A DNA stretch of 29,397 nt from Ktedonobacteraceae bacterium (lineage in GTDB: Bacteria; Chloroflexota; Ktedonobacteria; Ktedonobacterales; Ktedonobacteraceae): assembly GCA_035568795.1 (NCBI GenBank), contig DATMNR010000294.1:1-29397 (forward strand). The letters are read 5' to 3'. The position numbers were made by a program, and so were the translations under genes. Positions 5,176-16,607 of the stretch are shown here, piece after piece (position 1 is the first letter of the stretch; each line of letters begins with the position of its first letter). Below the pieces are notes generated by a model. It worked only from the letters and a program-made list of their open reading frames with translations, ran no database searches and had not been told where the DNA came from.

Positions 5176-6003
5176 CTATGAACGTACACGTTTCTCAGCC
5201 ATAGCCGGTCCAAATCCAAACATGCGTCTCAAACGTTCCATAAATGATTGCACTTCTTCGACTTCTTCCAGAGGCACTTCTTTACCAATTATACGCTGAG
5301 CGGCGTTTAGATATGCGCTTCCAGCACGTGAGTGTTTTTCGTAGACAATTGGCTCGCCTTTATTGATTGCCACGATGATCATTTCATCTTCGGGTACTAT
5401 GCCGACAAGATCAATACCTAACACTTCCAATACATCAGCCACATCCATCATATCTCCGCGTTTCACCATTTCAGCACGCAGGCGATTGAGTATGAGACGC
5501 GGTTCGGGCTTACCCGCGGCCTCAACCAATCCAATGATACGATCTGCATCACGCACCGAGGCCATTTCAGGATTTGCAACTATGATAATCTCATCAGCGC
5601 CAACAATTGCATTACGAAAACCTTGCTCGATGCCTGCAGGCGAATCAATCAACACAAAATCAAAATCCTGGCGTAATTGTTCGCAAAGCTGCTCCATCTG
5701 GATACTATTTATAGCGTTCTTATCGCGTGTCTGGGCAGCAGGCAACAAATAAAGTTCAGGCTGGCGTTTGTCTTTGATCAATGCTTGTCGTAGATGACAC
5801 TGCCCCTCCACAACATCTACAAGATCATAGACAATGCGATTCTCCAATCCAAGTACAGCATCAAGGTTCCGCAGGCCAATATCTGAGTCCACAACAGCAA
5901 CTTTTTTACCTTGCATTGCAAGGGCTGTTCCCAAATTCGCCGTGGTCGTGGTTTTGCCAACACCACCCTTCCCTGAAGTGATGGTTATCACCCGGCTATC
6001 CAT
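5176..6003 (-). CDS. minD: Septum site-determining ATPase MinD
   Basis: Deviant Walker A SGKGGVGKTTT, DSDIGLRNLD, DSPAGIEQGF, and C-terminal membrane-targeting FMERLRRMFG. Start set at ATG 6003 with SD GGAG. Confidence 0.97.
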   Translation of the reverse strand: MDSRVITITSGKGGVGKTTTTANLGTALAMQGKKVAVVDSDIGLRNLDAVLGLENRIVYDLVDVVEGQCHLRQALIKDKRQPELYLLPAAQTRDKNAINSIQMEQLCEQLRQDFDFVLIDSPAGIEQGFRNAIVGADEIIIVANPEMASVRDADRIIGLVEAAGKPEPRLILNRLRAEMVKRGDMMDVADVLEVLGIDLVGIVPEDEMIIVAINKGEPIVYEKHSRAGSAYLNAAQRIIGKEVPLEEVEEVQSFMERLRRMFGFGPAMAEKRVRS

Positions 6004-13784: not shown

Positions 13785-15032
13785 TTATTGAGGATCCAGC
13801 ACAGCCTCCAAATTCTTGAACTCATGGAAGCGCAAAAGCCAGCAACCATAGTTCATACCTCCACCAACAGCAGGAAGAGCCATCCACTGGCCCTCGTGCA
13901 GGCGTCCCTGGCGTAGAAGTTCCACCAGTGCGGTCGCTATACTGGCATTAGAGAGGTTACCATAATAACGGAAATTATCCACCAGCTTCTCCATTGTTGA
14001 AGACGGCCAACCATAGTCATGGATCAGTAATTCTCCCATGCGGCGCGTAATGCGCGAATTGGCCTGGTGTGGCACGATATGCGTTAAATCGTCATACCCT
14101 AACCCGGCATGGCGACACAGCACATCTACAGATTCTGCCATAGCGCGTGGAGCTTCGCGAAAAACCTCTTTACCATTCATTTTAGTATAGCCTACCATGT
14201 ACTGTGAAAGCATTAAATTCAGATCCGCACCCCTCCCAGCCTGGTAGAGCTCGCGCATTTTCATATCGACTTCAGCCATCTCGACGACATCTTTGCGCAG
14301 AGGTGTCTGATAGAAAAGTGATTCAGCCTGGTTTGCATCAGAACCATTAATCACATAGGTCTCTTCCTCACCCAGTTCCAATAAAAAAGCGCTGGCCCCC
14401 TCGCCAAAAAGGGAACTCGTTTTCCAATCCAGAACATTCAAGATATTGGGAAGTAATCCTTCAGAAGTAACCATGAGTACGAGATTGGCAGAACCGGCCT
14501 TTAGCACTTCGCTGCACACCTGAAAAGCCTCGGTTTGGCAAGCGCAAGCGCCTTTGAGCATACTTGCGCGTACAGGTCCTAATCCCAGGCGATTCTGAAC
14601 AAGACCGGCGATAGTTGGGAATGCGTCATTATCAGAAGAAGAAGCTCCGATCACCGTATCGATTTCAGAAGCGTCACGACCCGAGCTGGCGATGGCGCGC
14701 CGGGCAGCAACCACAGCCATATCCGCTAGTGTCTCTTCTCTGGGAGCCTTTGGATTGTCAATCAGTCCTGGAGCATCCGCTCCCGCCATTTTACGGCAAA
14801 GTTCCAGTGTGCTGGCACGCACATGCCGCGTACTCAAACCCGTTACACGTTCCAGGTCATCGGCGCTACGAGGATCTCCCAGGCGCGTGGATATAGCAGC
14901 AAAAAATTCGTTTGTAATCATACCAGCGGGAGCATAGGTGCCTAAACCTATCAGGCGTACTTTTGCTTTGGTGTAGACTTGAGGCACGACATAGACATAC
15001 TCAGGCCATTGCCCTGTGCGGCTTTGTGACAT
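13785..15032 (-). CDS. 3-oxoacyl-ACP synthase III family (FabH-like) condensing enzyme
   Basis: Cys-His-Asn triad: KGACAC, PHQAN, YGNLSNAS. Also IGLGTYAP, FGEGASA, MNGKEVF and GGGMNYG. SD GGAGG before ATG 15032. Confidence 0.9.
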   Translation of the reverse strand: MSQSRTGQWPEYVYVVPQVYTKAKVRLIGLGTYAPAGMITNEFFAAISTRLGDPRSADDLERVTGLSTRHVRASTLELCRKMAGADAPGLIDNPKAPREETLADMAVVAARRAIASSGRDASEIDTVIGASSSDNDAFPTIAGLVQNRLGLGPVRASMLKGACACQTEAFQVCSEVLKAGSANLVLMVTSEGLLPNILNVLDWKTSSLFGEGASAFLLELGEEETYVINGSDANQAESLFYQTPLRKDVVEMAEVDMKMRELYQAGRGADLNLMLSQYMVGYTKMNGKEVFREAPRAMAESVDVLCRHAGLGYDDLTHIVPHQANSRITRRMGELLIHDYGWPSSTMEKLVDNFRYYGNLSNASIATALVELLRQGRLHEGQWMALPAVGGGMNYGCWLLRFHEFKNLEAVLDPQ

Positions 15033-15068
15033 CAATTTAACCTCCTGGAGGGGACTGCTTCTGCCTGT

Positions 15069-15077
15069 AGTATAACA
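15069..15077 (-). promoter_or_regulatory. Extended -10 element (TGTTATACT) for the KAS III gene
   Basis: TGn-TATACT about 35 nt upstream of ATG 15032. Confidence 0.5.
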
Positions 15078-15111
15078 CACAACGGCGAATCAGGCGTCAG
15101 AAGTGCCCACA

Positions 15112-15150
15112 TAAAATGAAGCAGGTGACCGGTAGAGCCACCTGCTTCAT
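15112..15150 (-). terminator. Intrinsic terminator of the zinc-ribbon gene
   Basis: Perfect 12 bp stem ATGAAGCAGGTG / CACCTGCTTCAT (15116-15127 and 15139-15150), followed by TTT on the minus strand. Confidence 0.8.
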
Positions 15151-15177
15151 CGTCGCTACTTGAAAGTAGACCTGGAT

Positions 15178-15549
15178 TTACCAGCCAGAGTTGTAGCGAT
15201 CACGACCATCCTGACCGCGACTGCTGCTATAGCTGTGTGTATTGCGAGCGGGACGATGCGACTGGTAACAATCACTACAGTATACAGGACGGTCTTGACG
15301 TGGAATGAATGGGACAGAGGTAGGTCGTCCGCAGTCAGCGCACGTCGTTTCATAATGCTCGACATTACGTGAACGAGGGGCTGTTGACTGGGAATTACGT
15401 CGAGCAGCACGGCAACTGGGGCAGCGTCCTGGCTCATTGGTCAGATTGCGACTGGCGAAAAACTCTTGTTCTCCAGCGCTAAAGGTAAAGTCCTGACCGC
15501 AGTCGCGGCAGGTAAGGATACGATCCTGGTATCCTCCATTGGACATCAT
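15178..15549 (-). CDS. Zinc-ribbon / CxxC-x17-CxxC domain protein
   Basis: YQDRILTCRDCGQDFTFSAGEQEFFASRNLTNEPGRCPSCR, then TTCADCG...VPFIP..DRPVYCSDCY, then an S/R/G-rich tail. SD AAGGGGA. Confidence 0.92.
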   Translation of the reverse strand: MMSNGGYQDRILTCRDCGQDFTFSAGEQEFFASRNLTNEPGRCPSCRAARRNSQSTAPRSRNVEHYETTCADCGRPTSVPFIPRQDRPVYCSDCYQSHRPARNTHSYSSSRGQDGRDRYNSGW

Positions 15550-15559
15550 GGGTAATAGT

Positions 15560-15776
15560 TCCCCTTCTTGTTTGTTCGCTCCGCCCAATTGATCTAATAC
15601 GTTGCATGGATGTTCAGGAGACTCGTTTAATACTTGTAGTAGAAGTGTCTCGGGGTGGCCAGAGAAGTCTAGGGACTTTCAGTGAGGCAGGCAGGCACTC
15701 CTGGATTCCGGGTGGCGGAGCGAAACCAGGGATTGGATATTACTTACCTTGTCCTAAACCACCTTTTCATTGTACC
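15560..15776 (-). promoter_or_regulatory. Extended -10 promoter plus ~210 nt structured 5' leader (candidate cis-regulatory RNA)
   Basis: TGGTACAAT at 15768-15776. 11 bp long-range complement 15714-15724 / 15575-15585. Local hairpins 15699-15731, 15665-15678 and 15618-15651. Confidence 0.55.
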
Positions 15777-15845
15777 ATAGAAGAAGCAAAAAAGATATGT
15801 TTCGCCTGGTGAGATAATACGCATTAATCCCTATTTGGAGGCGCC

Positions 15846-16607
15846 TTGGACATCGCTACCGAGATCAAACAAGATGAACCTCTACTCGTCCAGCAGGCTC
15901 GTCAGGTACATACCATTACTGATCGTTTTTCAAGGGCAAACACCTACCTTGTCAATGATGAGGAGCATTGTTTTGTCATTGATCCTGGTTCTGTGCTCAA
16001 CACACACTTAACGCTACATTACCTCCAACGATTCCTACATCGCTCCCCCAGCGATATCGATCTTATCGTGCTGACACATTTACATCCCGATCATACAGCC
16101 GGAGTCGAAGCTCTACGCAAAGCCTGTAAGGCGCCCATTGCCGCGTCTATTGTCGCGCAACAATTTGTGCAATCATGGATAGATGGTAACCAGGAAATTC
16201 GGAGCAAACCGGGAATGAGCCATTTCGTTGGACATATGCTGAGCCAGCACCCTTTACCAGGCGCCTTGCATCATTTGGATCTCTTTCCACCACACTATGA
16301 GCAACAGGCACAAATGGTGGATATCTGGTTAGAGGATGTAGCAGGACTCCCAAATCATCTTAACTGGCGTGTCATCGCAAGTCCCGGGCACACACCCGAA
16401 AGCCTTTGTCTTTACAATCCCTTTAGCTACGAACTGGTGTGTGGAGATACTGTTGTCACGCTTGAGGGGGGAGCAGCGCTTGTGCACCAGCGCACCCTAC
16501 AAATGACACTTCAAACACTACGCAACCTGAACGTGCTCTACCTCTATCCCGGTCACGGTAGGCCAATTCTATCAAGACACGCCCTGGCAAACATCCAGGA
16601 TTCGTAG
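15846..16607 (+). CDS. MBL-fold metallo-hydrolase (glyoxalase II-like)
   Basis: THLHPDHTAG (HxHxDH), SPGHTPES, CGD and YPGHG. TTG start with SD GGAGG. Confidence 0.92.
   Translation: MDIATEIKQDEPLLVQQARQVHTITDRFSRANTYLVNDEEHCFVIDPGSVLNTHLTLHYLQRFLHRSPSDIDLIVLTHLHPDHTAGVEALRKACKAPIAASIVAQQFVQSWIDGNQEIRSKPGMSHFVGHMLSQHPLPGALHHLDLFPPHYEQQAQMVDIWLEDVAGLPNHLNWRVIASPGHTPESLCLYNPFSYELVCGDTVVTLEGGAALVHQRTLQMTLQTLRNLNVLYLYPGHGRPILSRHALANIQDS

Follow-up and report, generated by a model that had tools for sequence, protein, structure and literature searches.

The mRNA 5′ untranslated stretch of a small double zinc-ribbon gene from a Ktedonobacteraceae bacterium, about 215 nt long, is almost certainly a real structured cis-acting RNA. 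It is a new RNA family of a known kind of element, absent from RNA catalogues, and it probably controls translation of the gene that it precedes. The source genome is a soil metagenome-assembled genome of 4.0 Mb in 621 contigs. The window is the whole stretch of DNA that was analysed (29,397 nt); all leader features are read on its minus strand, and positions are those of the window. In the direction of transcription, the promoter, leader, gene and terminator contain the following features.

15769–15777, minus strand: extended −10 promoter element TGGTACAAT (TGn in 77 and TACAAT in 64 of 77 aligned upstream regions).
15757–15763, minus strand: 5′ strand of helix H1, GGUGGUU, which pairs with GGCCACC at 15661–15655 (genus-level p ~0.002).
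15746–15749, minus strand: 5′ strand of helix H3, AGGU, which pairs with ACC(N) at 15656–15653 (genus-level p ~0.002).
15740–15745, minus strand: conserved unpaired joiner AAGUAA, in the GGUAAGUAAU motif (consensus), where the RNA contig 5′ ends lie.
15735–15739, minus strand: 5′ strand of P3, UAUCC, which pairs with GGA at 15701–15699 (3′ strand within 15698–15703; p 0.026, suggestive only).
15728–15731, minus strand: C-run CCCU, a candidate anti-Shine-Dalgarno that overlaps CCNGG at 15730–15726 (duplex and column tests).
15714–15724, minus strand: 5′ strand of helix H5, UUCGCUCCGCC (comparative covariation).
15708–15711, minus strand: 3′ arm of H4, CCGG, a possible local hairpin with 15730–15726 (conserved; genus-level p 0.04).
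15662–15686, minus strand: optional inserted hairpin AAGUC/GACUU (an insert relative to the model, in some genera only).
15652–15661, minus strand: 3′ strands of H1 and H3, GGCCACCCC (consensus AACCACCNN; duplex and column tests).
15618–15651, minus strand: H7 hairpin GAGAC...GUCUC with a variable top (genus-level p 0.011).
15586–15617, minus strand: variable linker, unconserved in sequence and length.
15575–15585, minus strand: 3′ strand of H5, GGCGGAGCGAA (comparative covariation).
15559–15569, minus strand: Shine-Dalgarno region AAGAAGGGGAA, then a conserved spacer ending UACCC (consensus).
15178–15549, minus strand: gene for a 123-aa double zinc-ribbon protein with an Arg/Ser/Gly-rich tail (zf_Tbcl and zf_Tbcl_2; ATG at 15549).
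15115–15151, minus strand: intrinsic terminator hairpin with a 16-bp stem (z −4.05), then UUUAU.

An earlier note on this DNA had described a CxxC-x17-CxxC zinc-ribbon gene that ends in a strong terminator, and both descriptions are borne out, the first by the domains of the protein and the second by the 16-bp stem at 15151–15115. Pfam zf_Tbcl (PF13451) covers residues 8–54 of the 123 and zf_Tbcl_2 (PF23477/TIGR04272, CxxC-x17-CxxC) residues 64–99. Read from the sequence, the protein has 17 Arg and no Lys, with an R/S/G tail, and its N-terminus, MMSNEGY.DRILTCRDCG, is nearly invariant across genera. In the AlphaFold model (mean pLDDT 80) two small zinc-knuckle domains are accompanied by a tail that is disordered, and Foldseek returned no significant structural neighbour for it in the PDB or among Swiss-Prot models. 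PDB sequence search, Foldseek, ESM Atlas and the literature together yield only ‘zinc-binding, function unknown’ for the protein, and for the CxxC-x17-CxxC domain the literature gives zinc binding only (PMC12704099). The two-domain family is widespread across phyla, with members in Bacillota, Eremiobacterota, Methylomirabilota and other Chloroflexota (L122–L201).

Both the promoter and RNA data place a long leader in front of this gene. In the 77 aligned upstream regions the −10 element is always 6 nt ahead of a conserved GTGGTT, which predicts a transcript start at approximately 15762, and sequence conservation starts precisely at the predicted +1. The promoter from which a long leader had been deduced earlier is thus present and conserved, at 15777–15769, one base away from the 15768–15776 originally given. 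Seven soil metatranscriptome runs contain the locus, and contigs of four of them were compared with the window. They span 15155–15741 without a gap (one contig of 587 nt has no mismatches) and stop on the 3′ side at 15155–15185, by the terminator, and the flanking genes (14900–15145 and 15761–16100) have zero contig coverage. A single RNA thus carries both the long leader and the coding region, and the start near the ATG that the earlier note had named as fatal to its reading is not what the RNA contigs show. This mRNA can be assembled from four or more soil metatranscriptomes, at a word depth of up to ~88, with no RNA coverage of the neighbouring KAS III and metallo-beta-lactamase-fold genes, and expression of the zinc-ribbon gene in situ must therefore be very high.

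The 5′ ends of the contigs fall at 15740–15741 in three metatranscriptomes and two strain variants, and one contig joins an Illumina adapter after 15743. These ends are approximately 20 nt inside the predicted start, within the conserved GGUAAG/UAAU (AAG/UAAU) joiner, and they may reflect either the usual loss of 5′ ends in libraries or processing in the joiner. The 5′-most 20 nt, which hold the 5′ strands of H1 and H3, are outside the RNA contig coverage, and therefore the abundant RNA species may lack these two strands.

The leader DNA is conserved in 18 of 36 family genomes by BLAST, well past the genus. An alignment of 30 orthologous leaders (A1) was the basis of a covariance model (R1), which finds one or two full-length copies in 76 of 112 Ktedonobacteraceae genomes and in 31 of 39 genera, and has no match in 57 genomes of three sister families of the order. 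Eighty of the 82 matches end at the ATG of an orthologue that begins with the N-terminal sequence given above; the two exceptions are one truncated match and a congener (G001) that has lost the gene together with the 3′ half of its leader. In this congener (L035, G001:C3:9947–10231) the deletion extends from just past the H7 hairpin to the terminator, and the 5′ remnant, 88% identical and with its −10 mutated to TACACT, lies directly before the KAS III gene. We rejected an independent small RNA because here the 3′ half was lost along with the gene, leaving a decaying 5′ remnant. A second alignment (A2) consists of 82 rows from the model. The BLAST, R1, sister-family and second-leader genome tallies include two unpublished genomes, G022 and G099, once each; G022 is one row (L015) of A1 and hence part of the building of R1, and A2 excludes both, so that the structural statistics are independent of them.

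Rfam 15 covariance models gave no match at the gathering score over the whole window, nothing relevant at E ≤ 10 over 15100–15900, and none in eight other members of the leader family, a scan in which the detection of a nearby glmS ribozyme was a positive control. That ribozyme (RF00234, 71 bits; L057:1199–1365, minus strand, in G009) is an unrelated neighbour, encoded on the other strand approximately 140 nt upstream of the leader. The paralogue loci and 20 distant homologue loci likewise gave nothing relevant in Rfam, and a literature search found no publication describing the leader. No riboswitch consensus had been recognised by eye before, and the Rfam scan agrees. The leader contains neither a leader peptide nor a terminator; an upstream open reading frame was rejected, given that the sole candidate falls in the unconserved linker.

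The structure is best seen in H5. The perfect 11-nt complementarity first noticed in the window is exact (TTCGCTCCGCC at 15724–15714 against GGCGGAGCGAA at 15585–15575, with 128 nt between the arms), and its 3′ arm is indeed close to the Shine-Dalgarno, ending 7–8 nt before GAAGGGG. In the window alone there are five perfect inverted repeats of at least 11 nt within 200 nt, against 1.3 ± 1.1 in shuffles, and the single-sequence fold of the whole leader is no better than that of shuffles (z −0.55). The 11-nt repeat by itself is at chance level, and its significance comes solely from comparison with relatives. Other such repeats with short spacing are found at 5904/6050, 20945/20974 and 25262/25323.

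In the comparison, H5 is the only consensus helix that RNAalifold finds in the 30 leaders of A1, with one column pair divided into 15 C-G and 15 U-A. Across A2 the core of H5 is 98.6% paired, and seven of its eight pairs change on both sides, in 71 such cells, a count reached by none of 500 shuffles. The full 11 bp are 93% paired, with 77 double-change cells in 10 of the 11 pairs, across 32 genera; the covariation that the earlier note had proposed to look for upstream of orthologues is thus found. One pair has flipped between C-G and U-A at least six times on the tree of the coding region, with no mismatch in 74 sequences. A single-column covariation scan was swamped by G-U noise, and pair probabilities averaged across leaders recover H5 only. 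When the leader of the window is folded without pseudoknots, H5 belongs to the thermodynamic ground state; a fold from which it is barred is 14 kcal/mol less stable, and H5 is predicted to be 94–97% formed from 15 to 55 °C.

The other helices were evaluated by column counts and by a test of cognate against non-cognate duplexes, with one sequence per genus (32 genera), for which six control segment pairs gave p values of 0.10–0.94. H1 has compensatory variants among relatives (GUGAU/AUCAC and GUGGUC/GACCAC). In H3, CUGGU/ACCAG alternates with AAGGU/ACCUU, giving 31 double-change cells, a number reached by 2 of 500 shuffles; in the window the flanking A of H3 is opposite C. The H7 stem varies as GAGAUAU/AUAUCUC and CAGUUAUAU/AUAUACUG, and P3 as AUAUCC/GGAUAU, UCCC/GGGA and UUCUAG/CUAGGA. 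Two hairpins that had been placed at 15678–15665 and 15651–15618 both exist, the former as the optional insert and the latter as H7. A further optional hairpin, P2 (GGGA..UCCC), is present in 46 of 78 leaders and absent in the window. Strongly conserved unpaired motifs are GGUAAGUAAU, ACUGCCUGA and the spacer ending UACCC. The 3′ strands of H1 and H3 overlap by two nucleotides, and each of these helices crosses H5. Not all of the supported helices can therefore be nested, and the RNA must be pseudoknotted or alternate between states.

Several further pairings were rejected by the cognate/non-cognate and column tests, namely UCUCCU with the Shine-Dalgarno, a local CAGG/CCUG hairpin, AGGA with UCCUG, and CCAGGA as the partner in a local hairpin. 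H10, in which GGUAAG would pair with the pre-AUG spacer UACCC, was also rejected, as it shows no covariation (genus-level p 0.12) despite variants such as GGUAGG/CCUACC.

At the ribosome site, the C-run with the G-run of the Shine-Dalgarno is the best duplex in 62 of 78 leaders (genus-level p ~0.002; 15 of 500 by column shuffles), and its covariation rests essentially on one pair, m57/m211, which is C-G in 39, U.G in 16 and U-A in 10. A local hairpin that competes with H5 is harder to find. The TCCTGG/CCAGGA hairpin (15699–15731) proposed for this role does not hold up: its 5′ arm is in fact TCCCTGG (15732–15726), which needs a bulged C, and the hairpin is not conserved. The conserved candidate, H4 (CCNGG/CCGG), shows no covariation (199 of 500 column shuffles), so that of the two mutually exclusive folds in the earlier note only H5 has comparative backing, and because of this the word switch is used by inference only. 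The gap between the CCNGG arm and H5 is 1 nt, so a closed local hairpin and the full 11-bp H5 should exclude each other sterically under the general rules for pseudoknot loops; this is the only sense in which the competing folds may hold. In pseudoknot-free folding, ribosome-site accessibility of the full leader does not differ from that of shuffled controls (0.46 against 0.48) and is in the lowest 5% of shuffles in only 5 of 32 genera, so these calculations do not demonstrate occlusion.

An effect of the leader on translation or on mRNA stability, by way of H5 and the ribosome site, is fairly likely. Our best explanation, mechanism included, is a folded cis-acting leader of approximately 215 nt with a clamp on the ribosome site, and as a whole it is tentative, somewhat short of an even chance. 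The first transcript bases, GGUGGUU, pair with GGCCACC approximately 100 nt downstream as H1, H3 takes adjacent bases on the same 3′ strand, and H5 links the middle of the 5′ domain to the sequence immediately ahead of the ribosome-binding site. With the C-run (15731–15728) paired to the Shine-Dalgarno G-run as an extension, H5 would clamp the ribosome site and limit translation initiation, and the base-paired 5′ end may shield the mRNA from decay. During transcription the local P3/CCNGG hairpin around the 5′ strand of H5 would form first, and is the likely open state.

The most likely trigger, which is speculative, is the gene's own product; as the effector, the protein is a possible candidate, at appreciably less than even probability. 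It could bind the conserved unpaired motifs and the pseudoknot and so exert autogenous control in the style of a ribosomal-protein operator. As in autogenous leaders, the structured element is in the gene's own leader, with the 3′ strand of H5 7–8 nt before the Shine-Dalgarno. A gene-specific effector is favoured because the leader is associated with a single gene in a single bacterial family, because the protein is rich in Arg and without Lys (a matter of composition only), because paralogous genes carry a second, different conserved leader, and because distant homologues are modestly enriched for ribosome-site occlusion (11 of 72 against 3.6). Searches of solved and reviewed proteins yielded no relative that is informative about RNA binding by this protein. 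In the E. coli L20 operator, control likewise depends on a pseudoknot formed over a long range next to the ribosome site (PMC1888825), and ribosomal-protein operators of this kind have a narrow distribution (PMC3616713). Like the L20 operator in the infC-rpmI-rplT leader, in which a far-upstream sequence pairs next to the ribosome site of the regulated cistron to form a pseudoknot, the Ktedonobacteraceae element precedes the coding sequence of a small basic protein, as part of its leader, and is narrowly distributed. However, it has no sequence or Rfam similarity to the L20 operator, its helix ends 7–8 nt before the Shine-Dalgarno instead of covering it, and the zinc-ribbon product is not a ribosomal protein, with RNA binding only putative.

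The second leader is shared by the two zinc-ribbon paralogues that the source genome also encodes, L002 (G000:C338, 5282–5602, plus strand) and L003 (G000:C42, 9507–9851, minus strand), and takes up ~115 nt upstream of each. It has the −10 element TGTTATACT, an outer stem UGUAU.GUGC/GC..AUACA and a covarying hairpin (GGGAU/AUCCA, GGGUA/CACCC, GGAGA/CUCCC) just before a purine-rich ribosome site, and occurs in 17 of 36 family genomes and in none of 24 sister-family genomes, without a match in Rfam. Among the distant homologues, the 11 of 72 mentioned above (3.6 expected) are those in which the 100 nt of native sequence upstream hides the ribosome site to a greater degree than >95% of dinucleotide shuffles. 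A more general, and rather doubtful, proposal is a rule across phyla, by which double zinc-ribbon (zf_Tbcl and zf_Tbcl_2) genes would sit behind lineage-specific structured leaders that control access to the ribosome site, for the reason that their abundant product binds RNA and represses its own synthesis, the Ktedonobacteraceae pseudoknot being a high-affinity operator.

Other explanations account for part of these observations. The 5′ domain (H1, H3, P2 and P3 with the joiners GGUAAGUAAU and ACUGCCUGA) could be an aptamer that recognises a small molecule or an ion, with Zn2+ among the possibilities, the binding of which sets the H5 pseudoknot and the closure of the ribosome site by the C-run. 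The multi-helix pseudoknotted fold with strongly conserved unpaired nucleotides, the linker of variable length ahead of the distal pseudoknot strand, a leader without leader peptide or terminator, and conserved structure with covariation in H5, H1, H3 and H7 are all as in riboswitches. In ZTP/pfl, SAM-II and preQ1-II riboswitches, similarly, the conserved 5′ domain forms a pseudoknot, across an unconserved linker, with a distal strand close to the ribosome site. Unlike these, the leader has no Rfam match, to any aptamer, and is tied to a single non-metabolic gene: it occurs with one gene family (80 of 82 matches) in one bacterial family, with no metabolic or transport theme, the zinc-ribbon gene being related to neither. 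The different leaders of paralogues and distant homologues also fit a gene-specific effector better than a metabolite, and we regard a riboswitch as improbable. An element without any effector, in which the paired 5′ end protects the mRNA and the local hairpin delays the clamp by H5 and the C-run so that ribosomes load on young transcripts only, is rather unlikely as well. It would fit with H1 starting at the +1 predicted from the conserved −10, with a transcript that is abundant in several soil metatranscriptomes while its neighbours are silent, and with H5 as by far the most stable state (14 kcal/mol to forbid), the 3′ strand of which is made approximately 130 nt after the 5′ strand. Delayed closure by which ribosomes load on young transcripts is familiar from the maturation-gene leader of MS2 (Levivirus), where an upstream complement closes on the ribosome site over a long distance and, as might be the case here, a local hairpin could delay closure; however, MS2 is a phage genome RNA and not a bacterial mRNA, and the delaying hairpin of the zinc-ribbon leader is only putative. 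As with the stabilising 5′ stem-loops of the ompA leader, a helix starts at the very 5′ end, here a predicted one, of the long leader of a highly expressed mRNA, although here the 5′ end pairs with a strand approximately 100 nt away, inside a larger conserved fold, and a stabilising effect is putative. Neither a pure stability element nor a timer needs such extensive conservation of unpaired joiners, the delaying hairpin shows no covariation, and the RNA contigs lack the 5′ strands of H1 and H3.

An RNA thermometer, in which temperature melts the pairing around the ribosome site, had been among the earlier suggestions; in its favour are the length of the leader, as in cspA-type mRNAs, and the high expression of the gene in soil. 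In known thermometers of the melting type, the Shine-Dalgarno sits in a short hairpin with mismatches. H5, by comparison, consists of 11 perfect base pairs, and the melting type is disfavoured because H5 is predicted to remain about 95% formed (94–97%) over the whole range from 15 to 55 °C; predicted accessibility of the Shine-Dalgarno shifts only from 0.40 to 0.49 over the same range in pseudoknot-free folding, and we consider a thermometer highly improbable. Chance complementarity in an ordinary untranslated region, conserved as promoter or operator DNA only, would suit an inverted repeat that is expected about once per window and the unremarkable single-sequence fold, but it deserves almost no credence: the leader is present in RNA, and the compensatory double substitutions in 10 of 11 pairs across 32 genera already refute this reading.

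The folded leader is a well-supported structured RNA, uncatalogued and with the topology of a long-range pseudoknot, and comes from a phylum that has been little studied (Chloroflexota, Ktedonobacteraceae); its mRNA is one of few from the source organism that are abundant enough to assemble from soil metatranscriptomes. At least one carrier, Ktedonosporobacter rubrisoli SCAWS-G2 (genome G012), in which the leader lies at NZ_CP035758.1:6,791,383–6,791,610, is cultured, which makes the proposal testable at the bench. Should the protein prove to use the leader as its operator, this would provide a defined RNA ligand for working out the role of a protein whose family spans many phyla, and if the cross-phylum rule is true, the Ktedonobacteraceae leader would be a direct handle on the cellular RNA target of the protein.
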